Of a stretch of DNA of 64,000 nucleotides, positions 8,503 to 57,102 are shown one piece after another. Below the pieces are notes generated by a model. It saw nothing but the letters and a program-made list of their open reading frames with translations, searched no databases and was not told the origin of the DNA. The position numbers and the translations under genes were made by a program. Every line of letters begins with the position of its first letter. Position 1 is the first letter of the stretch. Origin of the DNA: an uncultured Candidatus Saccharibacteria bacterium (GTDB lineage: Bacteria; Patescibacteriota; Minisyncoccia; Portnoybacterales; UBA2143); the NCBI GenBank assembly GCA_964420115.1, contig CAYQQO010000002.1, positions 726-64,725 on the forward strand. Direction: 5' to 3'.

Positions 8503-8530
8503 AAAAAACCCGCTAGAAGCGGGTTTTTTG
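8503..8530. terminator. bidirectional rho-independent terminator
   Basis: AAAAAACCCGC-taga-AGCGGGTTTTTTG lies between convergent genes 8155..8481(+) and 8544..8735(-). Confidence 0.8.
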
Positions 8531-8543
8531 TTTTCTAACTGAA

Positions 8544-8735
8544 TTAGCGCTGCGGCCTCTGATCTCTTCGTTTTGACCAGCAATCTCGGCAGTAAATTGG
8601 CCGATCTGGAGCTGGTTCAAAAGGAAGTTCAGTAATTTCTTTAGCGCAGTCACTGCATGTCCAGTTACCTTTGACCATTTCCCTAGGAGGAAAATTTCCT
8701 CGAGATTGGTCGTTTCTTGGTTTTTTGTCGAACAC
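8544..8735 (-). CDS. C4 zinc-ribbon small protein (YacG-like pattern)
   Basis: CSDC...(17)...RPIYCRDCW: two CxxC pairs with an RP-x-x-C context reminiscent of YacG-type zinc ribbons. Confidence 0.45.
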   Translation of the reverse strand: MFDKKPRNDQSRGNFPPREMVKGNWTCSDCAKEITELPFEPAPDRPIYCRDCWSKRRDQRPQR

Positions 8736-9706: not shown

Positions 9707-10546
9707 TTGCTTTATATGACGAAGGAGGCGGTTTTTGTTAAAATATTAATTATGTTAGAGCCAATAGTTTTAGGGATTATCCAGGGGATTGCCGAATGGC
9801 TGCCAGTCAGCTCCGAGGGTCTTTTAGTTTTAACTAAAATCAATATTTTTGGCAGTCAGGACGGGATAGAATCAATTATTAAAGAAGCTCTTTTTTTGCA
9901 CTTGGGGACATTTTCAGCCGCCCTTATTTATCTTCGCAAAGATGTTGTTTCTCTTTTAAGGAGCTTTGTTAATTACCGCTCAACTGACGAAATTACTAAA
10001 AAAACATTAAACTTTTTAATTATAGCCACTCTTGTTAGCGGTTTGTTGGGTTTTTTGATTATTAATATTTTCATCAATTTAGAAAGCGGCACAAGTAGTG
10101 CCGGAAAAATTATTACCTTAATTGTTGGCATTTTGTTAATAATCACAGGAATTTTACAAATTAAAACACCGCGGGATGGATATAAAAGATATAAGGATTT
10201 GAATATTAAAGACGGGCTTTTATTAGGCGTTGCCCAGGGATTTAGCGCTTTGCCCGGCTTGTCTCGTTCCGGCTTTACTGTTTCTGCTCTTCTTTTGAGA
10301 AAATATGGCAATTACTACGCTTTAAAATTAAGTTTTTTAATGAGTCTGCCGATTGTTTTAGGAGGAAATATTATTTTAAATCTTAACAACATTGCTTTTT
10401 CAGTTAGGGGGCTTATCGGCCTTCTTTTTTCTTTTCTTGCCGGCTTGTTGACTATTGATCTTTTGTTAAAAGTGGCCAGAAAAATCAACTTTGGATATTT
10501 TGTTTTAATTTTTGGGCTACTGACTATTATTGCTGTTTTTATTTAA
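9707..10546 (+). CDS. uppP: undecaprenyl-diphosphate phosphatase
   Basis: GIIQGIAEWLPVSSEGLLVL matches the UppP/BacA motif and the protein has about 8 TM helices. The true start may be ATG 9716 or 9752. Confidence 0.8.
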   Translation: MLYMTKEAVFVKILIMLEPIVLGIIQGIAEWLPVSSEGLLVLTKINIFGSQDGIESIIKEALFLHLGTFSAALIYLRKDVVSLLRSFVNYRSTDEITKKTLNFLIIATLVSGLLGFLIINIFINLESGTSSAGKIITLIVGILLIITGILQIKTPRDGYKRYKDLNIKDGLLLGVAQGFSALPGLSRSGFTVSALLLRKYGNYYALKLSFLMSLPIVLGGNIILNLNNIAFSVRGLIGLLFSFLAGLLTIDLLLKVARKINFGYFVLIFGLLTIIAVFI

Positions 10547-10567
10547 TTCCCTTTATTTTATTATAAA

Positions 10568-10596
10568 AAAAGCAAACTTGCTTCTTTTTTTGTTTT
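10568..10596 (+). terminator. putative rho-independent terminator
   Basis: AAGCA-aact-TGCTT hairpin followed by CTTTTTTTGTTTT, after uppP. Confidence 0.45.
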
Positions 10597-10682
10597 GAGT
10601 TAGAATTTAGAAACATAAGTAAAAATATATTTTATCCTAACCACCCTAAGGAGATAAAAGGGGTGGCTTTTGTGGCCTTATT

Positions 10683-12515
10683 ATGCCAATTTTTAATCTT
10701 AAATCAAAATATAGAGCCTCTGGCGACCAGCCTCAAGCAATTGAAAAATTAGTTGAAGGGACTAAAAAGAATCATCGTTATCAGACGCTTTTGGGGGTAA
10801 CAGGCAGCGGTAAGACATTTACCATGGCTTCTGTTCTTTCGCATTTTAACATGCCTGTTTTAATTATTGCCCCCAATAAAGCCTTGGCGGCCCAGCTTTA
10901 CCGGGAATACAAAAATTTTTTTCCTGATAATTCTGTCAACTATTTTGTTTCTTATTACGACTATTACCAGCCGGAAGCGTATATGCCGACAACAGATACA
11001 TATATAGACAAAGAGGCAATGATTAACGAGGAAATTGATCGTTTGCGCCATCAGGCGACAAGCGCGCTTATGGCAAGGAAAGATGTTATTATTGTCGCTT
11101 CTGTTTCCTGTATATATAATCTGGGGGTTCCTTGGAACTATCAGGAAGCATCAGTTCATTTAGAAATTAAAAAACCCATTACCAGAGGCGATTTGATAAG
11201 GCAGTTGGTAAGAATTCAGTTTGAGAGAAGCGGGGGGGTTTTAAAAAGAGGGCAATTTAGAGCCAGAGGAGATATTTTTGAAATAATGCCAGCCGGAGAA
11301 AATATCTATTACAGAATTGAACTGGACGAGCAAAAAATTAAAGAAATAGCTGTGGTTGATCCGACAACAAGAAAAATAGAAAATGTTTTAAAGGAGATTG
11401 TTATTTTCCCGCCCAAGCACTTTATCAGCAACCAGCCGAAAATAAGGGCTGCGATAAAAGAAATTAAAAAAGAATTAAACGAAAGAATTAGGCATTTTAA
11501 AAAGGAAAAACTTTATTTGGAAATTGAACGGCTTTCAAGAAGAACAAAATATGATATGGAAATGCTGGCCAATGTCGGTTTCTGCCACGGAGTAGAGAAT
11601 TACTCGCGTCATTTAACGGGCAAGCTGGCCGGTGAACCGACGGAAACGCTTCTTTCATATTTTCCTTACAAAAATAAAAAGGCGCAGTTTTTAACCATTA
11701 TTGATGAATCTCATATTGCCCTTCCTCAAATTAGAGGAATGTATGAAGGAGACAGAAGCAGAAAAAAGACATTAGTCCAGTACGGCTGGCGTCTGCCTTC
11801 TGCTTTGGATAACCGCCCATTGAGATTTGATGAATTTGAAAAAAGAATTGGCCGGGTAATTTTTACTTCGGCTACTCCCGGGCCATGGGAAAGAGGTAAA
11901 TCTTCTCAAATTGTTGAACAGATAATCAGGCCGACAGGGCTGATTGACCCGCCTGTTGATGTTAGGCCTGTCTATCAAAGAAAAGAAAACAAAAGCCAAA
12001 TTGATGATTTGATAAAAGAACTAAAAATTATTGGCCAAAAAAGAGAGAGGGCGATTGTTAACACCCTAACAAAGAAAATGGCCGAAGATTTATACAGCTT
12101 TCTTTTAAAAGAGGGTTTTAAAGCGAATTACCTCCATTCAGATATCAAAACTCTCCAAAGAGCAGAAACTTTGATTGATTTTAGAAGAGGCAAATTTAAT
12201 ATTTTAGTCGGAGTAAACCTTCTGCGGGAAGGTCTTGATTTGCCGGAAGTAACGCTGGTGGCAATACTTGACGCGGACAGAGAAGGATTTTTAAGGAGCG
12301 AATCATCTTTAATTCAGACAATGGGCAGGGCGGCAAGAAATGTTTCCGGTAAAGTTATTTTATATGCTGACAATGTAACCGATTCAATGAAAAGAGCGAT
12401 AAGGGAAGTTGAACGCCGCCGGGAAAAGCAAAAAGAATACAACAAAAAACACAATATTGAACCAAAAAGCATTGTGAAGGATATAGAAAGCTTTATTGAG
12501 TTGGGGAAAAAATAA
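10683..12515 (+). CDS. uvrB: excinuclease ABC subunit B (lacks the C-terminal UVR domain)
   Basis: The N-terminus aligns residue-for-residue with UvrB (SGDQPQAI, GVTGSGKTF, YVSYYDYYQPEAY, the helicase motifs). It ends at ...SFIELGKK, where E. coli UvrB continues with the UVR coiled-coil. Confidence 0.9.
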   Translation: MPIFNLKSKYRASGDQPQAIEKLVEGTKKNHRYQTLLGVTGSGKTFTMASVLSHFNMPVLIIAPNKALAAQLYREYKNFFPDNSVNYFVSYYDYYQPEAYMPTTDTYIDKEAMINEEIDRLRHQATSALMARKDVIIVASVSCIYNLGVPWNYQEASVHLEIKKPITRGDLIRQLVRIQFERSGGVLKRGQFRARGDIFEIMPAGENIYYRIELDEQKIKEIAVVDPTTRKIENVLKEIVIFPPKHFISNQPKIRAAIKEIKKELNERIRHFKKEKLYLEIERLSRRTKYDMEMLANVGFCHGVENYSRHLTGKLAGEPTETLLSYFPYKNKKAQFLTIIDESHIALPQIRGMYEGDRSRKKTLVQYGWRLPSALDNRPLRFDEFEKRIGRVIFTSATPGPWERGKSSQIVEQIIRPTGLIDPPVDVRPVYQRKENKSQIDDLIKELKIIGQKRERAIVNTLTKKMAEDLYSFLLKEGFKANYLHSDIKTLQRAETLIDFRRGKFNILVGVNLLREGLDLPEVTLVAILDADREGFLRSESSLIQTMGRAARNVSGKVILYADNVTDSMKRAIREVERRREKQKEYNKKHNIEPKSIVKDIESFIELGKK

Positions 12516-12520
12516 AAAAA

Positions 12521-15037
12521 ATGGAAAACAAAATAACCATTAAAGGGGCAAGGGTTCATAATCTAAAAAACATAGATTTGGAACTGCCCAAGAATAAGAT
12601 AATTGTTTTTACCGGTGTTTCGGGGAGCGGCAAGTCTTCTCTGGCTTTTGATACTATTTTTGCTGAAGGCCAACGCAGATATATTGAATCGCTTTCTCCT
12701 TATGCTCGTCAGTTTTTAGGCGAAATGGAAAGGGCTGATGTGGATGAGATAACCGGCCTTTCTCCAGCCATTGCTATCGGCCAGAAGGCGCTTTCGCGAA
12801 ATCCTCGTTCAACTGTCGGCACATTAACGGAAGTTTATGATTATTTGCGAGTGCTGTTTGCTCGTTTAGGAGAGGTTTATTGCCCTGAGTGCGGTTTAAG
12901 GATTGAAAAATTATCTTTGGAAGAAATGGTTGATATTATTGTAAATGAAGCTAAAAAATCAAAAATAAAAGAAAAGGGGGGAACTATTACTATTTTATCG
13001 CCGGTTGTCCATGGAAGAAAAGGCGAATATTACCAGCTTTTATACGACTATCTTTCTTTGGGTTATTCGCAGGCAAGAATTGACGGGCAAGTTCGTTCTC
13101 TTCATGAAAAGGTTGTTCTTCCCCGCTACAAAGCCCATAATATTGATATTATTATTGATCGGGTGATGGTTGCTGATGAAAGCAGATTATTTGAAGCGGT
13201 GGAAAACGCTTTAAATTACAGTAAGGGATTGGTAGGCGTTATTTTAAATGAAGAAACAAAAAGCCCGCAGGAGTTTGTTTTATCTTCTAAGTGGACATGC
13301 CCCAAGGATAACTTTACTTTTCCCGAAGTAGAGCCGCGCCTTTTTTCTTTTAACAGTCCTTATGGCGCTTGTTCTTCTTGTTCGGGCTTGGGCAGGGATG
13401 ATTTGTTTTTAAAAAATATTTGTCCTAGTTGTCATGGCAAGCGTCTGAAAAAAGAGACCTTGTCTGTCAAAATTAACAAGCACAATATTTATCAATTAAC
13501 CGCTTTATCAATTGATAAGCTGTTTATTTTTTTTAAAGATTATCAGAAAAGACTAACTAAAAGGCAGAAAACAATAGGCCAAAATGTTTTAAAAGAAATA
13601 TTGGATCGTTTGCAATTTTTGCTGGAAGTGGGCCTTGATTATTTGTCTTTAGAAAGAGAAGCAGAAACATTGTCTGGCGGAGAAGCGCAAAGAATCCGTC
13701 TGGCTTCCCAGGTCGGTTCTCATTTATCAAACGCCTTGTATGTTTTAGACGAGCCGACCATTGGTCTTCATGAGAGAGATACAGACAGATTAATCAAGAC
13801 AATTAAATCACTCAAAGAAAGAAACAACACCATTATTATAGTAGAGCACGATGAAAAAACTATTTCTTCTTCTGATTTTTTGGTTGATTTAGGGCCGATG
13901 GCTGGGAGAGAGGGCGGGAAGGTGGTTGTCAGTGGAGATGTTAGAAAATTATTATCTGAAGCATCACGACAGCGTTCTTTAACTTTAGATTATTTAAATA
14001 GCAAAAAGAAAGTTGTTCTGCCGGAAAATCGCCGCAAAAAAATTAGGGAAAAATTGACTATTGTTGGCGCTCGATCTAACAACCTTCAAAACATCAATGT
14101 TGATATCCCGCTTAGAAAGTTTGTTTGTTTGACCGGTGTTTCTGGTAGCGGTAAATCATCTCTTTTGTATGATGTTCTGTATAAAAATTTAACAAGAATT
14201 AAATCAAGAATTGAAAGACCTTTGGAAAATGCCAATAAAATTTTAGGAGCTGAATATATTGATAAGATTATCGCCACGGATCAGTCGCCGATTGGCAGAA
14301 CGCCGCGTTCCAATCCGGCCACATATACGGGGATTTTCACGCCCGTTAGAATTTTTTTCGCTTCTTTGGAAGAATCGCGCCAAAGAGCTTATACTCCTTC
14401 CTATTTTTCTTTCAATGTCGCTGGCGGCAGATGCGAGGCCTGCTCCGGCGCCGGTTTTAACTTGATTGAAATGCATTTTTTGCCTCCTGTTTTAGTCCAA
14501 TGCGAAGTTTGCCGCGGGAAAAGATTTAACAGAGAAATACTGCAGATAAAATACAAAGGTAAAAATATCAGTGAAATTTTAGATATGACCATTGATGAAG
14601 CGTCGGAATTTTTCAAAAACATTTATTTAATTGCTGATAAACTGAAAGTTTTGCAAAGCGTTGGTTTGGGCTATTTGCAATTAGGCCAAAGCGCGACAAC
14701 TCTCTCTGGCGGAGAAGCGCAAAGAATTAAACTGGCTAGAGAACTAACCCAGACATTGGGCAAAAGAACCCTTTATTTATTGGATGAGCCGACAGTTGGT
14801 CTTCATTACTACGATATAGAGATGCTTTTGAATGTTTTGGATAAATTAGTAGAGAAGGGAAATACAGTCGCTGTTATTGAGCATAATATGCATATGATAA
14901 AATCAGCTGACTATGTTATTGATTTAGGGCCTGAAGGCGGAGAAAAAGGAGGGCGCTTAGTTGCCAAGGGCTTGCCCGAAGAGATAGCTAAAAACAGCAA
15001 AAGTTTAACAGGCAAGTATTTGAAAAAATATATATGA
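12521..15037 (+). CDS. uvrA: excinuclease ABC subunit A (insertion domain absent)
   Basis: Two ABC ATPase modules (GVSGSGKSSL twice, LSGGEAQR twice) and zinc-finger CxxC pairs. Only about 12 aa separate CSSCSGLG from CPSCHGKR, where E. coli has an insertion domain of about 110 aa. Confidence 0.9.
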   Translation: MENKITIKGARVHNLKNIDLELPKNKIIVFTGVSGSGKSSLAFDTIFAEGQRRYIESLSPYARQFLGEMERADVDEITGLSPAIAIGQKALSRNPRSTVGTLTEVYDYLRVLFARLGEVYCPECGLRIEKLSLEEMVDIIVNEAKKSKIKEKGGTITILSPVVHGRKGEYYQLLYDYLSLGYSQARIDGQVRSLHEKVVLPRYKAHNIDIIIDRVMVADESRLFEAVENALNYSKGLVGVILNEETKSPQEFVLSSKWTCPKDNFTFPEVEPRLFSFNSPYGACSSCSGLGRDDLFLKNICPSCHGKRLKKETLSVKINKHNIYQLTALSIDKLFIFFKDYQKRLTKRQKTIGQNVLKEILDRLQFLLEVGLDYLSLEREAETLSGGEAQRIRLASQVGSHLSNALYVLDEPTIGLHERDTDRLIKTIKSLKERNNTIIIVEHDEKTISSSDFLVDLGPMAGREGGKVVVSGDVRKLLSEASRQRSLTLDYLNSKKKVVLPENRRKKIREKLTIVGARSNNLQNINVDIPLRKFVCLTGVSGSGKSSLLYDVLYKNLTRIKSRIERPLENANKILGAEYIDKIIATDQSPIGRTPRSNPATYTGIFTPVRIFFASLEESRQRAYTPSYFSFNVAGGRCEACSGAGFNLIEMHFLPPVLVQCEVCRGKRFNREILQIKYKGKNISEILDMTIDEASEFFKNIYLIADKLKVLQSVGLGYLQLGQSATTLSGGEAQRIKLARELTQTLGKRTLYLLDEPTVGLHYYDIEMLLNVLDKLVEKGNTVAVIEHNMHMIKSADYVIDLGPEGGEKGGRLVAKGLPEEIAKNSKSLTGKYLKKYI

Positions 15038-16188
15038 CAACATTGCAAAGCCAAGCTAAAAAATTGCCCGATAATCCGGGGGTCTATCTCTTTTTAGATA
15101 AAAAAGGAGCTGTTTTGTATGTAGGACGGGCTGTCTCTTTAAAAAAAAGGGCGGCTAACTATTTTCAGAAAAACTTAGACCCGAGAATATCAGAAATGAT
15201 CAGCCTGGCTTTTAGGATTAAACACTATAAAACAGAATCAATTTTAGAGGCCGTTATTTTAGAAGCAAATTTAATAAAAAAGCACTGGCCAAAGTATAAT
15301 ATTAAAGACAGAGATAACCGTTCTTTTTTATATTTGGTTATTCCCAAAAATGATTACCCGCGGCCGATAATTGTCAGGCGAAGGGAATTAGAAAAGTTTC
15401 TGTCCAATGCTCATATTTTCGGGCCTTTTCAGAGTTTGTCTTTGCTTTATGGGGCTTTAAAAATTATCCGCCGCATTTTTCCTTACAGCATCTGCCAGCC
15501 AAATTCCGGCAAGCCTTGTTTTGATTATCAAATTGGCCTTTGTCCGGGATTATGCTTGGGACAAATTTCCCAAAAAGATTATCAAAAGAATATCAGAAAC
15601 ATTATCCTTCTTTTTTCCGGGCAGAAAAATCGGCTATTAAGGAAACTGGCTAAAGAAAACCCCGACAAAGCCAAAGCTTTGGGGCATATCCAAGATGTTT
15701 CTTTGATAAAAAAAGATGATTCTTTTTTTTCTAAAATTAGCAGAATAGAAGGATATGATATTTCCCATTTAACCGGCAGGGAGACATTTGGGGCAATGGT
15801 TGTTTTTTCCGGCGATCAGCCGGACAAAAGCCAATATCGTTTGTTTAAAATAAGGGGAGCGGGGAGGCGCGATGATCTGCGCGCTTTGGGGGAAACAGTT
15901 GTCAGAAGATTTAACCACAGAGAATGGCCTTTTCCTGATTTAATTTTAATTGACGGGGGCAAGCCGCAGGTTAATTTTATTGTCAAAACGCTAAAAGAAA
16001 ACTTTATTAATATCCCCTTAGTCGGCATTTCTAAGTTTGGCGGGGATAAACTGGTTTTCCCTCCTAAAGCAAAAAAATCATTAAAAGAATTAACCCAAAA
16101 TATCAAAGAAACTCTTTTAAGGGTTAGAGACGAAGCGCACCGCTTTTCTTTAAAATCCAGCCGAAGAAGCAGAAGAATTAAAAAATAG
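15034..16188 (+). CDS. uvrC: excinuclease ABC subunit C, short form (GIY-YIG plus RNase H-like endonuclease domain)
   Basis: GIY-YIG N-terminus (GVYLFLDKKGAVLYVGRA), a Cys-rich segment and the endonuclease motif RDEAHRF near the C-terminus. At 384 aa it has no HhH tail, and the UvrB-interacting region is shortened. It overlaps the uvrA stop (ATGA). Confidence 0.8.
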   Translation: MTTLQSQAKKLPDNPGVYLFLDKKGAVLYVGRAVSLKKRAANYFQKNLDPRISEMISLAFRIKHYKTESILEAVILEANLIKKHWPKYNIKDRDNRSFLYLVIPKNDYPRPIIVRRRELEKFLSNAHIFGPFQSLSLLYGALKIIRRIFPYSICQPNSGKPCFDYQIGLCPGLCLGQISQKDYQKNIRNIILLFSGQKNRLLRKLAKENPDKAKALGHIQDVSLIKKDDSFFSKISRIEGYDISHLTGRETFGAMVVFSGDQPDKSQYRLFKIRGAGRRDDLRALGETVVRRFNHREWPFPDLILIDGGKPQVNFIVKTLKENFINIPLVGISKFGGDKLVFPPKAKKSLKELTQNIKETLLRVRDEAHRFSLKSSRRSRRIKK

Positions 16189-16245: not shown

Positions 16246-16680
16246 ATGGAACATTATCCCTTAATAAGAACAATTTATTTATATTTATTCGCTTTAGTCG
16301 GGCTGGCGCTGATAATTATTGGCAGCGTTAAATTTGTTGATATGGGGCTTAAGGCCTTTATTTTTACTCAAGCTGAACAGGAAGAAAAAATTTACAATGC
16401 CCAGCCGCCAATGCCTCGTTCTATTGAAAAAATAGAGAAAATTGGCGAAGAGGGCGAGCAAGCGGCAGTGGAATTTAGCGAGGAAGAAAGAATTCTTATC
16501 TCCGAATGGCTGAATGACTACAAAAACTGGAAAGAAAGAAGCGAAGGGGTTAATTTTGTTACTGCTAGGCGTCATCGCCAGGCCTCTTCAAATTTGGCAA
16601 TGATATTAATTGGCCTGCCTCTATTTCTTTATCACTGGGGGATTATCAGAAGAGAAACGAGGAAAAATAGAGAGAAATAA
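16246..16680 (+). CDS. hypothetical two-TM membrane protein
   Basis: 144 aa with hydrophobic helices at both ends. Confidence 0.35.
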   Translation: MEHYPLIRTIYLYLFALVGLALIIIGSVKFVDMGLKAFIFTQAEQEEKIYNAQPPMPRSIEKIEKIGEEGEQAAVEFSEEERILISEWLNDYKNWKERSEGVNFVTARRHRQASSNLAMILIGLPLFLYHWGIIRRETRKNREK

Positions 16681-17346: not shown

Positions 17347-18630
17347 TTATTGACGGAGGGTTTGGTTGTATATTTTTAAATGGTCTAAAACTAATCTTGA
17401 AAAAAGGAATTTATTTTTGACTGTTTGCTGGGCTCTTTGGCCCAGTTTTTTTTGTAGCGGTTTGTTTTTAAGGAGTTTGACTAGGTATTGGGCGGCTTGT
17501 TCCGGGCTATTCACCAAAAAGCCGTTTTCGTTATCTTTTATTTGCAGGGCTATGCCTGTTGTCTGGCCGCCGATAACCGGTTTTCCTTTCCACATTGCTT
17601 CGGTGATAGTCAAGCCGAAACCTTCTTTAATTGATTTTTGGATTATTACATCGCTGGCTGTATAAACAGCGTTGATAAATATATCATTAGAAGTCCCCTT
17701 TAAATGGGACGGGTCGGCGAAAAGAAATACATCTGGATCTTCTTTAGCTTGCTTTTTCACTTTTTTAAATACTTCTATTGCCTGGGGATCGTCATAAGCC
17801 TGAAATATGCCAGCCATAATTAATTGCAAATTAGGGATTTTATTTTTTGCCAGATAATATGCTTTTAAAGCGCCTAACGGATCTTTGAAGGGGTCAAAGC
17901 GTGAGACTTGGCTGACAATTGGCTGGTTGGTGCAAATTCCATAGAGATTAAGAATTTTTTTTGCTTCTTCTTTTCCCATTTCTTTGTTTTTGTCGGTAAA
18001 AGGGTTGATAGCCGGCATGACTATTTTTGTTTTCTTTTCTTTCAGCCATTGGGGCTTGTATTGAGAGTGGCTTAAAATAGTTAACTTGTATTTTTCTATC
18101 AATGGCTGGAGGAATTTTAAAATACTCGGGTTGGGGGAGGAAAGATCAATATGCAGCCGCAGAAGAGGAATAATGTTTTTTGGCGTATAATCAATTAGGG
18201 GTAGTGGTTGGGGGTCGTGGATAAGGATAATATCGGGTTTTTCTTTTTTTAGTAGATTTTCAAAAGAAGGGGCAATTTTATCATAAAGCCATTTTAAATA
18301 AAAATACCTTTCGTCGTCTCCTAATCTTTCTGGCTCTCCTTGCAGGAGGTTGTGTATTTTTTTAGTAATTTTAAAAAAACGTATTGGCGCTTTAATAATA
18401 TACCATTGGGAATTAATGCCGAGAGATTGTTCTAAGGGAATTTGGCTGTGGAGCAGTTCTGAAACTCCGCCGCCAAGCTGGGTGGAATTAATCTGAATAA
18501 TTTTTTTACCCTTAAGATTTTTGGAGAGGTTGGCGGCTTGTTTGAATATTTTCGGCGTTATTTCACTGTAATTATCAAAATTTCTCTGTTTTGTTTTGAT
18601 TTTTTCTAAAGAATGCATACTTATTGTCAT
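17347..18630 (-). CDS. GT4-family glycosyltransferase, TreT-like (putative trehalose synthase)
   Basis: INSTQLGGGVSELLHSQIPL...WYIIKAP...FFKITKKIHNLLQG resembles the TreT N-terminal signature. The C-terminus has EGFGLTITEAMWKGKPVI, the GT1/GT4 motif. Confidence 0.55.
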   Translation of the reverse strand: MTISMHSLEKIKTKQRNFDNYSEITPKIFKQAANLSKNLKGKKIIQINSTQLGGGVSELLHSQIPLEQSLGINSQWYIIKAPIRFFKITKKIHNLLQGEPERLGDDERYFYLKWLYDKIAPSFENLLKKEKPDIILIHDPQPLPLIDYTPKNIIPLLRLHIDLSSPNPSILKFLQPLIEKYKLTILSHSQYKPQWLKEKKTKIVMPAINPFTDKNKEMGKEEAKKILNLYGICTNQPIVSQVSRFDPFKDPLGALKAYYLAKNKIPNLQLIMAGIFQAYDDPQAIEVFKKVKKQAKEDPDVFLFADPSHLKGTSNDIFINAVYTASDVIIQKSIKEGFGLTITEAMWKGKPVIGGQTTGIALQIKDNENGFLVNSPEQAAQYLVKLLKNKPLQKKLGQRAQQTVKNKFLFSRLVLDHLKIYNQTLRQ

Positions 18631-19642: not shown

Positions 19643-21706
19643 GTGTGGGTAAATAATTTTCAGACAAGCAGGCGAAGCGGGCATTTTGAGAAAAGAAGGG
19701 GATTCTCAACCCGGTTTGTTTTGCTTAGTTTATCTATGTCGCTACCAGTTTATTTTTCTCTTACTGCGCCAGTAATTGCTCTTCTTTTTGCTGCTTTTTT
19801 AGCATGGCAGATAAAAAAGCAGGTTGTTGTTTCATCTAAGGTGGCTCATATTGGCCAGATAATTAAAGAAGGGGCAATGACTTTTTTAAATAGAGAATAC
19901 AGAATTCTTTTTATTTTTGTTTTAGTTATCACTGGCCTTTTATATTATTTCCTTAACGCGCAGACAGGACTGGCTTTTATAACTGGCGCTGTTTTAAGCG
20001 CTTTAGCCGGGCAAATTGGCATGAGAGTAGCTACTTTGGCAAATGTCAGAACTGCTGAAAAATTAAACAGAGACTTAAAATCAGGATTATTAGTCGCTTT
20101 TAACAGCGGTAGTGTTATGGCCTTGAGTGTGGTCGGATTAGGGCTTTTAGGTATTGTTAGTCTTTATTTAATTTTTAAAGAGCCGGTTATTATTTATGGT
20201 TTTGGCTTTGGCGCTTCAAGCGTTGCTTTGTTTGCCCGGGTAGGCGGCGGTATTTACACTAAAGCCGCTGATGTGGGCGCTGATTTGGTCGGCAAGGTTG
20301 AAAAGGGGATTCCTGAAGATGACCCCCGCAATCCGGCGACTATCGCTGATAATGTTGGTGATAATGTCGGTGATGTGGCTGGAATGGGGGCAGATCTTTT
20401 TGAAAGTTATGTAGATAGCATTATTGCCGCTATGGTTATTGGTTCTGTTGTGGCTATTGGCGACAAGGGGATTCTCCTGCCTATTGTTCTGGCCGCTGGC
20501 GGAATTATTGTTAGTTTAGTCAGTAATTTGTTTGTTAAAATGGGATCGGCTGGAGTAGAAAAAGGATCTGCCCATAACGTTTTAAACAGGGGGATTTGGT
20601 CGGCAACAATTCTAATGGCTCTTACTTCTTACGGTTTGATAAAATATTTGGGGTTTGGGATTGGTGTTTTTTATGCTTTTTTAACCGGTCTTTTATCCGG
20701 CTTGGTTATTGGTTTAGTGACAGAATATTTCACTTCGCATAAATATCGTTTTACAAGGCAGATCGCTAATTCCGCCCAAACAGGAGCTGGAACAAATATT
20801 ATTTCCGGCCTAGCTTTAGGTATGGCCAGCACAGTTGTCCCTGTTTTAGTAATCGGTACTGCTGTATTTCTTGCTTACCAATGGAGTCAGCTTTTTGGTA
20901 TTTCCATAGCCGCCGTCGGTATGCTTTCCACTTTAGGTATAACCTTAGCAACAGACACCTTTGGCCCGGTGGCGGATAATGCGGCTGGTATCGCTGAAAT
21001 GGCTGAAATGGGCAAAGAAACAAGAGAACGAGCAGAGGACTTGGACGCGGTTGGGAATACTACAGCGGCAATTGGCAAAGGGTTTGCTATTGGCGCGGCG
21101 GCTCTAACAGCCTTGGTTTTAATGGTTAGTTATGGCCAAGCAGTTAAATTACCTTTTGTTGATTTATTTAGTTATAGAGTGATAATTGGTCTGTTTTTAG
21201 GCGGACTGATGCCTTTTATTTTTTCTTCTTTTGCTCTTAAGGCGGTCGGCCGGGCGGCAATGGCTATGGTGGAAGAAGTGCGCCGCCAGTTTAAAACAAT
21301 TAAAGGTATTATGGAAGGGGAAAGACAGCCGGATTATGCCAGATGTGTTGATATCAGCACTAAGGCGGCTTTAAGAGAAATGATTTTACCAGGCGTTTTA
21401 AGTATTTTGGCTCCTGTTTTGGTTGGTTTTCTTTTAGGCCCCGATGCTTTGGCTGGTCTTTTGGCTGGCTCAATCGTTTCCGGCTTTTTACTGGCTGTGA
21501 CAATGGCCAATGCCGGAGGGGCTTGGGATAATGCTAAAAAATTTATTGAAACAGGACAGTTGGGGGGTAAGGGGTCAGAAGCGCATAAAGCGGCAGTGGT
21601 AGGTGATACTGTTGGTGATCCTTTAAAAGATACTGCCGGTCCATCGCTTAATATTTTATTAAAACTGATGGCTATTGTTGCTCTTATTATCGCCCCTTTG
21701 CTTTAA
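19643..21706 (+). CDS. hppA: membrane-bound pyrophosphate-energized ion pump (H+/Na+-PPase)
   Basis: [21 protein letters not shown] and [21 protein letters not shown] motifs; about 16 TM helices. The likely true start is ATG 19736 (MSLPVYF...). Confidence 0.9.
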
Positions 21707-21712
21707 AGCTTA

Positions 21713-22453
21713 ATGAATATTTTTTTCTGGATTTTCCTGTCTACTTTTTTAATTAGTTTAATCTCTTTTTCAGGGGCGCTTGTTTTATTTTTAAGGGAAA
21801 AATTACTTGAAACAACTCTTCTGTGTTTGGTCGCTTTTTCAGCCGGCGCTTTAATGGGGACGGCTTTTCTGCATCTCTTGCCGGAAGCGGTTGAGGAAAC
21901 AGGCGGCAGTTTAACTGTTTTTCTCTATTTGATTATTGGCTTTACTCTTTTTTTTATTTTAGAACAATTTATTGGCTGGCATCATCATGATCAGCGTCAT
22001 CAACGGGCAAAATCCTTTTCCTATCTAATTTTAGTCAGCGACGCTCTTCATAATTTTATTGATGGATTGATTATTGCCGCTTCTTTTGTGATAGCTGTCC
22101 CTGTCGGCATTGCTACTGCTGTTGCGGTGGCTTTGCATGAAATACCGCAGGAAATAGGGGATTTTGGTATTTTAGTTTACGGAGGAATAGAAAAGATAAA
22201 AGCGCTTTTTCTTAATTTTTTCACTGCCATTACAGTGGTTTTTGGCGGCTTGGTTGGTTTTTTGCTGGCTGGAAAAATAGGCCAGTCAATTGTTTTTCTT
22301 CTTCCCTTTGCCGCCGGCAGTTTTGTCTATATTGCTTCATCTGATTTAATCCCGGAAATAAAACACAGAGGAGGCTCAAAAATGTCTATTATCCATTTTC
22401 TTTTCTTTGCAACTGGTTTAGTTTTGATGTTGGTTTTAAAGTTGTATGAATAA
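21713..22453 (+). CDS. zupT: ZIP family metal transporter
   Basis: HNFIDGLIIAASF and ALHEIPQEIGDFGIL ZIP signature motifs, plus a His-rich loop HHHDQRHQR. Confidence 0.8.
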   Translation: MNIFFWIFLSTFLISLISFSGALVLFLREKLLETTLLCLVAFSAGALMGTAFLHLLPEAVEETGGSLTVFLYLIIGFTLFFILEQFIGWHHHDQRHQRAKSFSYLILVSDALHNFIDGLIIAASFVIAVPVGIATAVAVALHEIPQEIGDFGILVYGGIEKIKALFLNFFTAITVVFGGLVGFLLAGKIGQSIVFLLPFAAGSFVYIASSDLIPEIKHRGGSKMSIIHFLFFATGLVLMLVLKLYE

Positions 22454-31131: not shown

Positions 31132-31206
31132 GCCAGCGTAGCTCAGGGGTAGAGCAGCGGTTTTGTAAACCGTCGGTCGGGGGTTCAAATCCCTCCGCTG
31201 GCTCCA
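31132..31206 (+). tRNA. tRNA-Thr (anticodon TGT), CCA encoded
   Basis: Cloverleaf folded by hand: acceptor GCCAGCG/CGCTGGC, D-arm GCTC-AGGGGTA-GAGC, anticodon stem GCGGT/ACCGT with loop TTTGTAA, T-loop GGTTCAAATCC. Confidence 0.8.
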
Positions 31207-31207
31207 G

Positions 31208-31291
31208 GGGCAGGTGGCAGAGCGGCCAAATGCACCAGACTGTAAATCTGGCGTCCTCGTGACTACGGGGGTTCGAATCCCTCCCTGCCCA
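31208..31291 (+). tRNA. tRNA-Tyr (anticodon GTA), type II long variable arm
   Basis: Anticodon arm CAGACTGTAAATCTG is identical to bacterial tRNA-Tyr. Acceptor GGGCAGG/CCTGCCC and T-loop GGTTCGAATCC. Confidence 0.8.
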
Positions 31292-31316
31292 CACCACAAA
31301 AAAATAATAGAATAAG

Positions 31317-31389
31317 GCCGACGTAGCTCAGCTGGTAGAGCACCTCCATGGTAAGGAGTAGGTCGTGAGTTCAAGTCTCACCGTCGGCT
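31317..31389 (+). tRNA. tRNA-Thr (anticodon GGT)
   Basis: Acceptor GCCGACG/CGTCGGC, D-arm GCTC-AGCTGGTA-GAGC, anticodon loop ATGGTAA, T-loop AGTTCAAGTCT. Confidence 0.8.
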
Positions 31390-31397
31390 CAAAATCT

Positions 31398-31556
31398 ATG
31401 TCGCAAGATAATTTAATAAAATTCCAATGCAGCCAGTGTAAAAGAATTAATTACTGGTCTAGTAAAAACAAAAAAAAGATTCAGAAGAAATTAGAGCTGA
31501 AAAAATTTTGCAAGTGGTGCCGCCAGCATACGGCGCACAAAGAGGTGAAGAAGTAG
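31398..31556 (+). CDS. rpmG: 50S ribosomal protein L33 (zinc-ribbon form)
   Basis: MSQDNLIKFQCSQCKRINYWSSKNKKK...KLELKKFCKWCRQHTAHKEVKK has the L33 KLELKK..KH..KE.K C-terminus with CxxC...CxxC. The upstream part of ORF 31365.. overlaps the tRNA and is not coding. Confidence 0.8.
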   Translation: MSQDNLIKFQCSQCKRINYWSSKNKKKIQKKLELKKFCKWCRQHTAHKEVKK

Positions 31557-31557
31557 T

Positions 31558-31896
31558 ATGGATATAAAAGAATATCAAAAACTTTGCGAAAGAAGCGCTA
31601 AAAAATACAGAGATAAGGAGAAAGAAATAATGAGTTGGGGGCTGGGCATTTCCGGAGAAGCTGGTGATGTTTCTGGTTGTATTAAAAAAACATATAGCCA
31701 CAAGGATAACCAGAAAAGCGGGATAAGGGAGAATTTGGGTGATACTATGTGGTATATTGCTATGATTTGTAACTTTTACGGATGGAGCTTAGAAGAGGTA
31801 ATGGAAGAAAATATTAAAAAGTTAAAAAGAAGACATCCAAAAGGGTTTTCGCATCAGGGATGCCGTAATGACAAAAGAAGGGATTGGAACAAATAA
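31558..31896 (+). CDS. MazG-like nucleotide pyrophosphohydrolase (small all-alpha NTP-PPase)
   Basis: EYQKLCERSAKK...WGLGISGEAGDV...ENLGDTMWYIAMICNFYGWSLEEVMEENIKKL matches the MazG/YpjD-type EExxE/D motif arrangement. Confidence 0.7.
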   Translation: MDIKEYQKLCERSAKKYRDKEKEIMSWGLGISGEAGDVSGCIKKTYSHKDNQKSGIRENLGDTMWYIAMICNFYGWSLEEVMEENIKKLKRRHPKGFSHQGCRNDKRRDWNK

Positions 31897-31909
31897 ATAA
31901 TATATTTAC

Positions 31910-31981
31910 GGGCGCGTCCGTTAATTGGCAAACGGTCGGCCTCCAAAGCCGATCCTGGGGGTTCGAGTCCCTCCGCGCCTG
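31910..31981 (+). tRNA. tRNA-Trp (anticodon CCA)
   Basis: Anticodon arm TCGGC-CTCCAAA-GCCGA is identical in loop to E. coli tRNA-Trp. Acceptor GGGCGCG/CGCGCCT and T-loop GGTTCGAGTCC. Confidence 0.75.
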
Positions 31982-32048
31982 CTGTTTTTTAAATATAAGG
32001 GGGAAATTGTTCTTTTAACTCTAATATCTGATAAAGGAGGAAGGGGAA

Positions 32049-38780: not shown

Positions 38781-38781
38781 T

Positions 38782-38854
38782 GGGCGCATAGCTCAGGGGT
38801 TAGAGCACTATCTTCACACGATAGGGGTCTCTGGTTCGAATCCAGATGCGCCCA
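38782..38854 (+). tRNA. tRNA-Val (anticodon CAC)
   Basis: Acceptor GGGCGCA/TGCGCCC, D-arm GCTC-AGGGGTTA-GAGC, anticodon stem CTATC/GATAG with loop TTCACAC, T-loop GGTTCGAATCC. Starts 2 nt after the upstream stop codon. Confidence 0.8.
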
Positions 38855-38867
38855 TTGATGTCTTTTT

Positions 38868-45281: not shown

Positions 45282-45354
45282 GGCCCCATCGTCTAGTGGC
45301 CCAGGACATCGCTTTCTCAAGGCGAAAACCGGGGTTCGATTCCCCGTGGGGCTG
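45282..45354 (+). tRNA. tRNA-Glu (anticodon CTC)
   Basis: D-loop GTCTAGTGGCCCAGGAC is diagnostic of tRNA-Glu. Anticodon stem TCGCT/GGCGA with loop TTCTCAA. Acceptor GGCCCCA/TGGGGCT. Confidence 0.8.
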
Positions 45355-45493
45355 CATAATTATCAGTCTAAATCACTGTCTGCCTTCAAGTAAGCATGAT
45401 TCAGCAACGCGATTATGCCCGCCAAAGGCGGATACTCAAATCTCTGGCTAAATCAAAGATTTAGAAAGATTTGGTGAAAGGGGGTGAGAATCG

Positions 45494-52225: not shown

Positions 52226-52558
52226 ATGTTGGCAGTAATTAAAACAGGCGGAAAACAATATTTAGTTTCGCCAAAAGATAAAATTAAAATAGAAAAACTG
52301 GATGCCGAAGAGGGCAAAGAAATAAACTTTAGCGAGGTTTTGTTAATTTCCAAAGGAAAGACAATAAAAATTGGCTATCCCTTAGTTAAAGGCGCCAAAG
52401 TTAAAGCAAAAGTAATAAAGCAGGACAGAGCTAAAAAAATAATTATTTATAAATACAAAGCTAAAAAACGCTACAAAGTAAAAAAAGGCCATCGCCAGCC
52501 CTTTACCGAAGTAGAAATATTAAATATTTTATCTTCTCCCCAAAAAAGCGCTAGTTAG
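52226..52558 (+). CDS. rplU: 50S ribosomal protein L21
   Basis: MLAVIKTGGKQYLVS...KKGHRQPFTEVEI: canonical L21. Confidence 0.9.
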   Translation: MLAVIKTGGKQYLVSPKDKIKIEKLDAEEGKEINFSEVLLISKGKTIKIGYPLVKGAKVKAKVIKQDRAKKIIIYKYKAKKRYKVKKGHRQPFTEVEILNILSSPQKSAS

Positions 52559-53128
52559 GGTGTTTTCATCAAGGTATTCCAAGTCACTGCCGGTAGATAA
52601 GCCGCGAGCCAAGCGGCTTATTTTTGTCCCCGAGGACTTTAATAAGCGTTCAATATAAAAGGTGGTAGTATCTCCCTCTGTTGTCGGGGAAAGAGCAAAA
52701 ATTATTTCTTTTGTAAGAGGCTGTTTTTTCTCAATGCGGCTGGCCAATTCTTTAATTTTTAAATCATTGGGGCCAATACCGCTTGACGGAGAAATTAACC
52801 CGCCTAAAACATGATAAAGGCCGTTGTATTGTTTTGTTCTTTCAATAGGCGGAATATTTAAAACATTTTCCACCAGACATATTATTGAGTTATCTCTTTT
52901 TTTGTCTTGGCAGACAGAACAAAGCTGATTTTCTTTTTCAGCTATATTAAAACAATTACGGCAAAGTTGGATTTGCCCTTTAATTTCTTTGATTGAGCCA
53001 GCTAAAAGATTTAATTCTTTCTGGTCTTGGTTAAGCAGAAAAAAAACAAGCCGGGCAGCCGCTCTGGGACCGATATCAGGCAGTTTTGATAATTGGTTGA
53101 TTAAGTTTTGGATTGATTGAGGAAACAT
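52529..53128 (-). CDS. recR: recombination protein RecR
   Basis: LSKLPDIGPRAAARL HhH, C4 zinc finger CRNC...CSVC and a Toprim domain. Confidence 0.9.
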   Translation of the reverse strand: MFPQSIQNLINQLSKLPDIGPRAAARLVFFLLNQDQKELNLLAGSIKEIKGQIQLCRNCFNIAEKENQLCSVCQDKKRDNSIICLVENVLNIPPIERTKQYNGLYHVLGGLISPSSGIGPNDLKIKELASRIEKKQPLTKEIIFALSPTTEGDTTTFYIERLLKSSGTKISRLARGLSTGSDLEYLDENTLTSAFLGRR

Positions 53129-54513
53129 TATTCTTCAATATGCCTTTCTAAATTTTTAAAGCTAACTTGGCTCTCATTAAAGTATAGTTCAACTTTGCCA
53201 ATGGGTCCGTTTCTGTGTTTGGCAATAATGACATCGGCAACATTTTTTCTTTCTGTATTAGGCCTGTCTTTGTCTTCTCTATAGATAAACAAGACAACGT
53301 CGCTGTCTTGCTCAATGCTCCCGGAGTCGCGCAAGTCAGAAAGTTTAGGAATAGATGGAGAGCGGGATTCCACTGCTCGGGAAAGCTGGGAAAGAGCCAA
53401 AACAGGAATACTTAATTCGCGGGCCAAGGTTTTCAGGCCGCGGGAAATTTCTGTCACTTGCTGGACAGGAGAATCGCTGGGATTTCTCGGCTGTATCATT
53501 TGCAAATAGTCAATAACAATTAATCCCAAATTATGTTCTGCCTGCAGGCGTCTAGCCATTGCCCTCATATGTAAAACCGTTGCTGAAGGAGTGTCGTCTA
53601 TAAAAAGGGAAGCGGCAGACAGTTCATCCATTGCCTGCTGGATGCGTTGGAAATCATTATCCGGTCCTTCTCCTGACAAACGCCCTGTTCTCATCCGCCA
53701 AGAATCAACTTCTGCTTGAGCGCAAATTAAACGATCAACTAGTTGTTCTTTTGACATTTCCAAACTGAAAAAACCAACTGGAATTTTGCTTTTTAAAGCA
53801 ATATTTCTGGCTAAATCAAGGGCTAGGGTTGTTTTGCCAAGGCTTGGTCGGGCGGCTAAAGTGATTAAGTCAGACGACTGGAACCCGGAAAGAAAATTAT
53901 CTAAATCAATAAAGCCAGTGGGAATACCGCGAGTTGCTTCATCACCTCTGTGAAGTTTGTCTATTCTTTCAAAAGCTTCTTCTAAAGCGTCTTTAATTTG
54001 TAGAAACTTCTTGCTAATTGAATCTTTTGAAATGGAAAATATTTTCTGTTCCGCTGTGTCAACCAGCGTTTCTACATCTTCTGTTTCCTGATAACTTAAT
54101 TCTGTAATTTGATGCGATGTTTCTATTAAATCCCGCAGTGTTTTTTTATGTTTGACAATTTTAGCATAATAGAGAATATGGGCGGCAGTCGGCACTGCGT
54201 TAACTAATTCTGTTAAATATCCACTTCCGCCAATTTCCTCCAAAACGCCCTTATCTTCCAAACGGCTGGTTAAGCTCAATAGATCAATTGGTTCGTTTTT
54301 CTCATAAAGATCTACCATTGCCTGATATATGCTGTTGTGTATCCCGCGGTAAAAATCTCCCGGCCTGATCATATCAATTATTTTAAAAACAGCTTCCTTA
54401 TCAAGCATAAGTGACCCGAGAACGCATTGTTCTGCCTCTATATTCTGCGGCGGCAAACGGCCTTCCGAACTGTCCGTTTTGTTTGTTTTTTTAAGATTTG
54501 GCATATTAAGCAC
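53128..54513 (-). CDS. dnaB: replicative DNA helicase DnaB
   Basis: N-terminal PQNIEAEQCVLGSLMLD, Walker A GARPSLGKTTLALD and RecA-like domain motifs. Confidence 0.9.
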   Translation of the reverse strand: MLNMPNLKKTNKTDSSEGRLPPQNIEAEQCVLGSLMLDKEAVFKIIDMIRPGDFYRGIHNSIYQAMVDLYEKNEPIDLLSLTSRLEDKGVLEEIGGSGYLTELVNAVPTAAHILYYAKIVKHKKTLRDLIETSHQITELSYQETEDVETLVDTAEQKIFSISKDSISKKFLQIKDALEEAFERIDKLHRGDEATRGIPTGFIDLDNFLSGFQSSDLITLAARPSLGKTTLALDLARNIALKSKIPVGFFSLEMSKEQLVDRLICAQAEVDSWRMRTGRLSGEGPDNDFQRIQQAMDELSAASLFIDDTPSATVLHMRAMARRLQAEHNLGLIVIDYLQMIQPRNPSDSPVQQVTEISRGLKTLARELSIPVLALSQLSRAVESRSPSIPKLSDLRDSGSIEQDSDVVLFIYREDKDRPNTERKNVADVIIAKHRNGPIGKVELYFNESQVSFKNLERHIEE

Positions 54514-54520
54514 ATTAAAA

Positions 54521-54544
54521 AGGAGGCGACCCTCCTATATTTTA
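54521..54544 (-). terminator. terminator-like hairpin between cysS and dnaB
   Basis: Minus strand: AGGAGG-gtcg-CCTCCT followed by TTTTTAA. Confidence 0.4.
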
Positions 54545-54582
54545 TCTAAACAAGAATTTACCCGCAAGAAGATATCTTGTGG

Positions 54583-56897: not shown

Positions 56898-57029
56898 ATA
56901 TTTTTCTATTTAGGATCGCCTTAAACGAGCTTTTGCCGCTCAAAGCGCCCTCCTTTAATTAAAATAATATTTTACAAATCATTTACATTTTATCATATTT
57001 TGAGGAAAAGAGCCAAGTTTGCTGGAAAA

Positions 57030-57069
57030 ATGAAGAAATAAAAGAGCCCAAGATATTTTCGTCTTGGGC
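57030..57069 (-). terminator. rho-independent terminator of the triple-HTH gene
   Basis: Minus strand: GCCCAAGA-(8-nt loop)-TCTTGGGC followed by a T-rich tract. Confidence 0.45.
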
Positions 57070-57102
57070 CCAATAGGGTGCTTTTGGAGAAAGGGCGGAT
57101 GA

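Follow-up and report, generated by a model that had tools for sequence, protein, structure and literature searches.

How UvrC is recruited to the UvrB-DNA complex and positioned on it is the least understood step of bacterial nucleotide excision repair (NER). The contact between the UVR motifs of UvrB and UvrC is the sole defined interface of the two proteins and is considered necessary for 3' incision, and no structure of a UvrB-UvrC-DNA complex was found in the literature searches made. Whether repair can do without this contact is the question raised by the 64-kb stretch of contig CAYQQO010000002.1 analyzed here (the window), which carries at positions 10683-16188 a uvrB-uvrA-uvrC (uvrBAC) operon, all three open reading frames (ORFs) on the + strand, encoding proteins without a UVR motif on either side of the interface. 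For NER specialists, the paired loss is a natural test of how essential the UvrB-UvrC handshake is. Based on sequence comparisons, the locus is probably a genuine minimal UvrABC system kept by purifying selection, typical of a very large lineage of Patescibacteria (Candidate Phyla Radiation, CPR), in which UvrC is recruited independently of UVR.

Retained cores and absent modules

All three proteins exceed the NCBIfam equivalog cutoffs: UvrB with 903.7 bits (cutoff 743) and 890.2 bits (cutoff 750.1) for TIGR00631 / NF003673, UvrA with 1216.7 bits (cutoff 1147), in two stretches, for TIGR00630 / NF001503, and UvrC, in a marginal pass, with 289.2 bits (cutoff 285.45) for TIGR00194. They are orthologous to the canonical class I UvrABC proteins of Escherichia coli, Bacillus, Thermotoga and Deinococcus radiodurans, with which they share the two ATP-binding cassette (ABC) modules and UvrB-binding domain of UvrA, the superfamily 2 (SF2) helicase core, β-hairpin and domain 2 of UvrB, and the GIY-YIG domain, Cys-rich motif and active-type RNase H endonuclease of UvrC. 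Compared with the canonical set, however, five modules are absent. UvrB has no domain 4, UvrA has no insertion domain, and UvrC is without the UVR signature, the helix-hairpin-helix (HhH) domain (HhH)2 and the RNase H1-like platform (PF22920). The total size is 1,832 amino acids (aa) as compared with 2,223 aa in E. coli, where the three genes are dispersed and not joined in one operon. The sequences show intact enzymatic cores and an intact interface between UvrA and UvrB, and each of the three orthologues is missing at least one of its classical defining domains. Reference domain boundaries were taken from uvrA, uvrB and uvrC of E. coli K-12.

UvrB aligns over residues 3-609 to a solved UvrB of 661 aa (its residues 4-600), and the NCBIfam match covers positions 2-595 of the 653-position profile. 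The complete helicase core (domains 1a, 1b, 2 and 3) and the β-hairpin are retained (matches to PF17757, PF00271 and PF04851), with conservation of the Walker A residue K44, D341 of the DExH motif and the β-hairpin tyrosines Y91/92/94/95/100. The C-terminal linker and the UVR hairpin, which together constitute domain 4, are missing; the UVR motif of E. coli UvrB is located at residues 634-667, and its F652 and R659 map past the C-terminal end of the window protein. No match to the UVR family PF02151 was obtained with Pfam, a custom UVR hidden Markov model (HMM) was likewise negative in the window, and there is no room for a UVR tail, since uvrA begins 5 nucleotides (nt) past the uvrB stop. A first reading of the DNA from sequence alone (the sequence-only reading) had UvrB ending exactly where the UVR domain would begin; the loss of the domain stands, but the protein ends where the flexible linker ahead of the hairpin starts, and not at the hairpin itself.

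UvrC retains both nuclease modules and the Cys-rich motif, and lacks (HhH)2, as had been noticed at the outset. The GIY-YIG residues Y18, Y29, R39, Y43, E77 and N89 are invariant across 51 clade members. Residues 237-381 match solved fragments of the RNase H endonuclease, in which D242, D281, D307 and H369 correspond to E. coli D399, D438, D466 and H538, and the C-terminal end of the protein aligns with residue 161 of the RNase H+(HhH)2 construct 2nrt (220 aa), where the (HhH)2 linker would start. The Cys-rich motif is the one that binds an [Fe-S] cluster in D. radiodurans UvrC (PMC10085695). Reference domains in E. coli UvrC are UVR at 205-237, PF22920 at 251-368, PF08459 at 385-542 and HhH at 557-608; no UVR, PF22920 or HhH match was found in the window UvrC by Pfam, and custom HMMs gave no significant match. 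Alignment to E. coli shows that the whole inactive RNase H1-like domain PF22920, a type of domain that serves as platform for the other UvrC domains (Seck et al., PMC10085695), is missing and makes up the main part of the shortened middle, and the precomputed domain listings of relatives never include PF22920. The shortening had initially been assigned to the UvrB-binding UVR region; the middle is indeed short and the UVR signature is gone, but most of the missing length is due to the platform.

The lesion in the UVR region itself is small and clean. Close UVR-positive relatives, e.g., P0131, read '…AKNLEFEKAAKLRDQIFALRHIQDVALI' at this position, and compared with them a deletion of ~17 aa takes out the 'NLEFExAAxLRDQI' signature and leaves the subsequent 'HIQDVSLI' helix in place. 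An alternative delineation as a 9-aa deletion, obtained from an E. coli-only alignment, was rejected on the basis of these closer relatives. E. coli UvrC L221/F223 fall in an alignment gap, and the UVR HMM returns only a split, sub-threshold signal at the remnant. In the AlphaFold2 (AF2) model, which is a confident one (mean predicted local distance difference test score, pLDDT, of 86.8), the GIY-YIG domain is followed by a bundle of short helices (180-228; helices 198-208, 210-217 and 222-228 in the remnant), a 5-residue disordered linker, and then directly by the RNase H domain. Foldseek comparisons of the model gave template modeling (TM) scores of 0.85-0.89 with a root-mean-square deviation (rmsd) of 1.1-1.6 Å for the GIY-YIG domain, and a TM score of 0.72 to 2nrr for the RNase H domain.

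UvrA aligns to 9gxk_A in two blocks, residues 4-292 with 25-304 and residues 295-837 with 421-959, such that 116 reference residues (9gxk_A 305-420) are skipped. No match to the insertion-domain family PF17755, which spans residues 290-399 in E. coli UvrA, was found by Pfam, and only 9 residues separate the C..C.G.G and C..C.G.[RK] motifs, compared with 107-123 in insertion-domain-positive relatives. The missing insertion domain had been recognized from the sequence alone, with a residual gap of about 12 residues; the count between the two halves of the second zinc module (Zn2) is nine. Both ABC ATPase modules are kept, with conserved Walker A residues K38 and K545, and the UvrB-binding domain, the mark of class I UvrA as opposed to class II UvrA2, is present, including the UvrB-contact residues R222/E228 (E. 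coli R216/E222). Because this domain and UvrB domain 2 both give full-length Pfam matches, the UvrA-UvrB interface is seen as preserved, while the UVR interface between UvrB and UvrC is gone. All three zinc modules are present, with four Cys ligands each in Zn2 and Zn3. The first, Zn1, consists of C121, C124, C260 and D263; the fourth ligand is an Asp (C260-P-K-D263, window 13298-13309) in place of E. coli Cys256, and the remaining three positions are all Cys, whereas E. coli has a His at one of them.

Paired loss of the UVR motifs

For comparison, we used the best 80 of at least 577 species-level genomes with UvrC relatives (one genome per species), supplemented with UVR-positive short-UvrC operons, which came from one contig look-up and from scanning metagenomes with short UvrCs that retain UVR. 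The UVR state of both proteins could be read at 78 loci and agrees at every one of them, UVR being absent from both proteins at 65 and present in both at 13. Both partners of the contact are thus missing in the window, as the sequence-only reading had stated, and their presence or absence covaries perfectly across these loci. The tails of UVR-positive UvrBs span +47 to +79 aa and contain the canonical L-[DEQ]-F-E-x-A-A-x-L-R-D motif, whereas those of UVR-negative UvrBs measure -5 to +28 aa, are basic and lack the motif. The custom UVR HMM found no match in any neighboring UvrB of the 80 related loci.

The longer tails among the UVR-less UvrBs of the clade were considered as degenerate UVR motifs and rejected, being motif-free and merely basic, i.e., rich in Lys and Arg. 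Such tails of 15-28 residues occur in L023, L030, L031, L038, L048, L061, L072 and L076, for example …SKIKKSKVKRI and …PDRPVKRSRKK, and might be small DNA-binding tails.

Sorting 301 UvrCs with custom HMMs for UVR, PF22920 and HhH2 (seeded with 49, 8 and 15 sequences, respectively) showed that the majority (172) carry UVR only and that 92 carry none of the three; UVR is combined with HhH2 in 22, with PF22920 and HhH2 in 11, and with PF22920 in four. On the UvrA side, the insertion domain is absent alongside UVR-positive UvrB/UvrC at seven loci (L088, L089, L093, L095, L098, L099 and L107), nine loci are positive for both features, and 68 are negative for both. Since insertion-domain-less UvrA pairs with UVR-positive UvrB/UvrC, and since loss of PF22920 and (HhH)2 extends more widely than loss of UVR, the losses are nested, successive events. 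Across these distributions the order, widest first, is the PF22920 platform, (HhH)2, the UvrA insertion domain and the UVR pair; the non-UVR losses are separate from and older than the co-loss of UVR. The proposal of one coordinated loss of interaction and accessory domains therefore has to be divided: the UVR pair is strictly coupled, but the accessory domains were lost separately.

A second UVR-less lineage

In a neighbor-joining tree, UvrCs without UVR fall into two groups, the window clade with 89 members and a small separate clade (P0194, P0243 and L116) nested among UVR-positive sequences. The lineage represented by the latter comprises more than 120 UvrC clusters at 57-70% identity with Patescibacteria names, none of which has a precomputed UVR match. 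Its UvrBs are 600-608 aa long without UVR in L169-171, L175 and L176, the tail is absent in L116, and in the UvrB tree they cluster with UVR-positive UvrBs, away from the window clade. The genes are also arranged differently, uvrC and uvrB being convergent and uvrA not adjacent, and the lesion in UvrC is of another kind, with a longer unrelated segment in place of UVR as opposed to the ~17-aa deletion in the window clade. Because the UvrC and UvrB trees, gene order and lesion all differ, the data indicate that the paired loss occurred independently in at least two lineages, a count that is provisional. Three further loci of the second lineage lack UVR in both proteins, raising the total of concordant negative loci to 68; L168 and L172-L174 (contexts of P0243/P0271 and P0318) have no uvrB within 10 kb and were left out of the co-variation count.

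In three contexts of this lineage, a tiny gene for a 57-60-aa 4Fe-4S ferredoxin (PF00037/PF13370) lies 10-50 nt upstream of uvrC (L168 1653-1835, L172 9806-9988 and L176 9777-9950), and in L175 it is located ~1.3 kb upstream (8529-8702). Its position beside uvrC is intriguing because the UvrC Cys-rich motif binds an Fe-S cluster (PMC10085695).

Distribution and constraint

The best 80 loci all encode short-form UvrC and span Portnoy-, Taga-, Nealson-, Wolfe-, Falkow-, Buchanan-, Komeili- and Magasanikbacteria. Protein sizes in related loci are ~605-660 aa for UvrB, ~830-870 aa for UvrA and ~380-430 aa for UvrC. The single-strand order uvrB-uvrA-uvrC, together with the domain architecture of the window proteins, is found in 63 of 64 UVR-negative loci, at UvrC identities of 55-73%. 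Among the 120 closest UvrC clusters (90% identity), almost all are 373-437 aa in length (one has 355 aa) and 58-73% identical, with source names that include Portnoybacteria, Pacebacteria, Nealsonbacteria, Parcubacteria and Patescibacteria. In an exhaustive HMMER search of 1.84 billion representatives, short UvrCs dominate the top 150 clusters (50% identity), and long forms appear only lower in the ranking. The nearest relatives share ~70% protein identity; constraint was judged by invariance of catalytic residues instead of the ratio of non-synonymous to synonymous substitutions (dN/dS), because synonymous sites would be saturated. Judged across these relatives, the reduced operon is a lineage-wide trait, and not the outcome of artefact or decay.

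Some irregularities were noted among the relatives. A 1,558-aa UvrB-UvrA fusion in L012 (1760-6433) was rejected, as the ORF runs through an N/X stretch at a scaffold gap. Many contigs with short uvrBAC operons (L021, L022, L023, L028, L033, L061 and others) are titled 'uncultured Gammaproteobacteria', 'Planctomycetota' or 'Candidatus Udaeobacter', probably as a result of placeholder or wrong taxonomic labels, or of bin contamination. In a UVR-positive sister operon, uvrA is separated from uvrC by an inserted Y1-transposase-like gene (PF01797, weak match) and an inserted ORF of 179 aa (L085 9268-9927, L086 3457-4116 and L087 2112-2771); the uvrB-uvrA-uvrC arrangement therefore tolerates insertions.

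Comparison with known deletions and variants

Domain 4 of UvrB restrains the ATPase activity and DNA binding of the protein by autoinhibition, and it also acts as a UvrC-binding and dimerization element (PMC5053424, PMC7835731). The window UvrB shares its lack of a C-terminal UVR with UvrB*, the proteolytic or engineered form deleted of domain 4, but here the truncation is natural, has become fixed across two large lineages and goes along with loss of the UvrC partner motif. E. coli UvrA with residues 290-400 deleted remains able to support incision, but its discrimination of damage on long DNA is poor, and global NER is affected more severely than Mfd-coupled repair, while deletion of the insertion domain from Bacillus stearothermophilus UvrA caused no defect on short substrates (PMC3025350). 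The window UvrA is the same class I UvrA without insertion domain as these engineered variants and keeps the UvrB-binding domain as they do; it differs in being natural and widespread, with or without UVR-bearing UvrB/UvrC. Natural class I UvrAs of this kind are noteworthy because a cryo-electron microscopy study from 2025 emphasizes that the insertion domains have an 'essential role' in coordinating DNA (PMC11985968).

For UvrC, the D. radiodurans Δ(HhH)2 construct shows full 3' incision, weaker 5' incision and normal binding to UvrB, and the RNase H domain stabilizes the UvrB-UvrC complex, which is weakened by its removal (PMC10085695); this implies additional contacts outside the UVR hairpin. 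Both this construct and the CPR UvrC lack (HhH)2, but the latter also lacks the RNase H1 platform and the UVR hairpin. Cho, a nuclease with GIY-YIG and Cys-rich modules, incises in NER without an orthodox UvrC-type UvrB-binding domain (PMC10085695, PMC1564403). It provides a precedent for UVR-independent action, although it has no RNase H endonuclease, makes the 3' cut only and coexists with UvrC, whereas the window UvrC keeps the 5' nuclease domain. The window protein is not a Cho, scoring 64.8 bits against the Cho model NF007833 (cutoff 367) and containing the RNase H endonuclease. Cho is said to bind a different part of UvrB, as reportedly described by Moolenaar et al. in 2002. Taken one at a time, these experimental precedents would make each single deletion tolerable. 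A phylogenomic classification of GIY-YIG proteins from 2006 describes UvrC as C4-UvrBb-EndoV-HhH, along with Cho, Cho-like and Mycoplasma variants, and lists no form in which EndoV is kept but UvrBb and HhH are absent (PMC1564403). Searches of the literature on UvrC/UvrB in Patescibacteria/CPR and on the UVR domain in reduced genomes found no prior description of these domain losses.

Proposed mechanism and its weighing

An altered NER mechanism may be envisaged as follows. The UvrA dimer would load UvrB by way of two retained parts, its own UvrB-binding domain and domain 2 of UvrB. To discriminate damage, the system would probably lean more on the Zn3 hairpin, on verification by UvrB and perhaps on Mfd-coupled repair, since E. 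coli UvrA deprived of the insertion domain still permits incision, with poorer discrimination. Released from its autoinhibitory domain 4, UvrB may be constitutively able to hydrolyze ATP and to bind DNA. UvrC would then join the UvrB-DNA pre-incision complex through a UVR-independent contact, for which the candidates are its GIY-YIG/Cys-rich/helical module and its RNase H domain, placed against the UvrB core and the distorted DNA, and it would cut 3' with the GIY-YIG domain and 5' with the RNase H domain without the need for (HhH)2. As to the evolution of the pair, one UVR partner may have been lost first, upon which the other became useless and was deleted; the strict co-variation would arise because an orphan UVR motif without its partner is lost.

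The more specific proposal that in these two large lineages UvrC docks on the UvrB-DNA complex at a second interface, one that does not involve UVR and is probably ancestral and shared by all bacteria, is one on which we consider the arguments evenly balanced. If true, the RNase H1 platform and (HhH)2 of UvrC, the insertion domain of UvrA and the UVR:UVR handshake would be accessory enhancers and not part of the core. With 1,832 aa, the set would then be a candidate for the smallest complete NER machine with dual incision found in nature, and an attractive target for determining a UvrB-UvrC-DNA structure. Two lineages, each with more than 100 clusters at 90% identity, have dropped both UVR partners and kept every catalytic element, which amounts to a natural deletion experiment; the paired loss predicts a second interface and defines which modules are dispensable, and matched UVR-positive sister operons, e.g., L085 and L088, serve as controls. 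The system is also a case of domain-level co-evolution between interacting motifs, and it refines the meaning of 'has uvrABC' where the repair capacity of CPR bacteria is deduced from gene presence.

Several points weigh against a minimal UvrABC system with UVR-independent recruitment and its repeated origin. The UVR-mediated UvrB-UvrC interaction is reported to be necessary for 3' incision in E. coli and D. radiodurans (PMC10085695). The search for the lost modules reached over 64 kb of the own genome and the ±10 kb flanks of relatives, such that modules encoded in trans elsewhere are possible. The count of two loss events is provisional, as it relies on simple neighbor-joining trees of divergent sequences. 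Furthermore, the name 'Candidatus Falkowbacteria' is attached both to genomes of the first lineage (L011, L029, L049, L053 and L080) and to proteins of the second (P0314, P0317, P0318, P0363 and P0392), reflecting either the coarseness of the name or paralogous or transferred NER gene sets.

Among the other explanations, the one that survives best is a rewired pathway in which the UvrB/UvrC contact is abolished and UvrC acts as a structure-specific nuclease on the UvrB bubble or on a stalled transcription complex, mainly in Mfd-dependent transcription-coupled repair. This would agree with the absence of both UVR partners, with the finding that UvrA without insertion domain harms global NER more than transcription-coupled repair (PMC3025350), and with the ability of D. 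radiodurans UvrC-C to reach 3'-incised DNA without contact to UvrB (PMC10085695). However, 3' incision by GIY-YIG requires contact with UvrB in the systems studied (PMC10085695), and the strict uvrBAC operon suggests joint action of all three proteins; we regard this pathway as unlikely.

A split of the genes, with the UVR, (HhH)2, insertion-domain or platform modules encoded separately elsewhere and assembling in trans, appears quite improbable, even though small proteins of helical or HhH type easily escape detection and 64 kb of the own genome were examined. Searches with phmmer using the E. coli domains, and with the custom HMMs, gave no significant match in the six-frame translated window or in ~1.2 Mb of flanks of the 80 loci, and no separate ORF encoding a lost module was found there. 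The lone sub-threshold UVR signal is the UvrC remnant, and split genes would not predict the paired loss of both UVR partners. Alignments to E. coli, solved structures and relatives likewise revealed no segments that are present but divergent. The two ways in which the absence of the modules might be only apparent, divergence and separate ORFs, were thus both looked into with negative outcome within the sequences covered.

Reductive decay, i.e., eroding relic genes in a tiny symbiont genome, with NER non-functional or partly functional, such as UvrAB binding without incision, would be suggested by the strongly reduced genomes of CPR bacteria, the five missing modules, the UvrC score barely over its cutoff, and the erosion of NER genes known from other reduced symbionts (PMC5310779). 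Decay would, however, predict heterogeneous truncations and frameshifts, whereas the deletions observed are clean, domain-exact and identical over dozens of genomes that diverged deeply (55-73% identity), the reading frames are unbroken, the catalytic and metal-binding residues checked are invariant, and the operon order is maintained; we therefore consider decay highly improbable. Truncated gene calls, frameshifts or misassembly that mimic domain losses, for which the metagenome-assembled source and the homopolymer A-run at the uvrB/uvrA junction might speak, can be dismissed almost entirely, as the boundaries are identical in more than 60 independent assemblies and the 5-nt spacer between uvrB and uvrA together with the 4-nt overlap of uvrA and uvrC leaves no space for hidden protein tails. 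A genuine minimal UvrABC system is the reading that we retain.

Operon layout and genomic surroundings

The coordinates of the operon and of the retained and altered protein features are given in Table 1. A short hairpin with a T-run is seen by eye downstream of bacA, at ~10570-10593, whereas a promoter/terminator scan of the operon gave nothing informative and an Rfam scan of the operon matched no element.

Table 1 Features of the uvrBAC region in window coordinates
Feature	Position	Strand	Remarks
bacA-uvrB intergenic region	10547..10682	+	sequence reading; likely operon start
uvrB	10683..12515	+	610 aa
UvrB domain 2 (UvrA-interaction domain, aa 158-247), kept	11154..11423	+	PF17757 E=1.7e-21, profile 1-91/91
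UvrB last conserved segment (PF12344, aa 560-601), nine residues (…IELGKK) and stop	12360..12515	+	
uvrA	12521..15037	+	838 aa
UvrA UvrB-binding domain (aa 151-242), kept	12971..13246	+	PF17760 E=8.1e-24
UvrA Zn2 junction (C284-S-S-C287 … C301-P-S-C304)	13370..13444	+	RDDLFLKNI in place of the ~110-aa insertion domain
uvrC	15034..16188	+	384 aa
UvrC GIY-YIG 3'-incision nuclease domain (aa 5-98)	15046..15327	+	1yd6 alignment
UvrC Cys-rich motif (C154, C162, C170, C174)	15493..15555	+	corresponds to E. coli C154/C166/C174/C178; conserved in clade
UvrC helical-bundle remnant (aa 198-228)	15625..15717	+	usual seat of the UvrB-binding UVR hairpin
UvrC RNase H-type 5'-incision endonuclease (aa 234-384)	15733..16185	+	PF08459 E=6.5e-37; 2nrr/2nrt alignment

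The operon is flanked by bacA (undecaprenyl-diphosphatase family; 9707-10546) and by a gene for a DUF5671 membrane protein (16246-16680), followed by a trehalose-synthase-like GT1 glycosyltransferase gene on the minus strand (17347-18630) and a gene for a membrane H+-pyrophosphatase (19643-21706). The highest GC content of the window (0.426, 20001-22000) overlies the latter gene, with values of ~0.35-0.39 elsewhere. A block of minus-strand genes at 52529-58011, including the replicative helicase gene dnaB (53128-54513), coincides with the sole intervals of negative GC skew (54001-58000), the remaining window being almost entirely + strand with positive skew. Six tRNA genes are present, four of them clustered at 31132-31982 (Thr(TGT), Tyr(GTA), Thr(GGT) and Trp(CCA)); the other two, at 38781-38855 and 45282-45355, are Val(CAC) and Glu(CTC).

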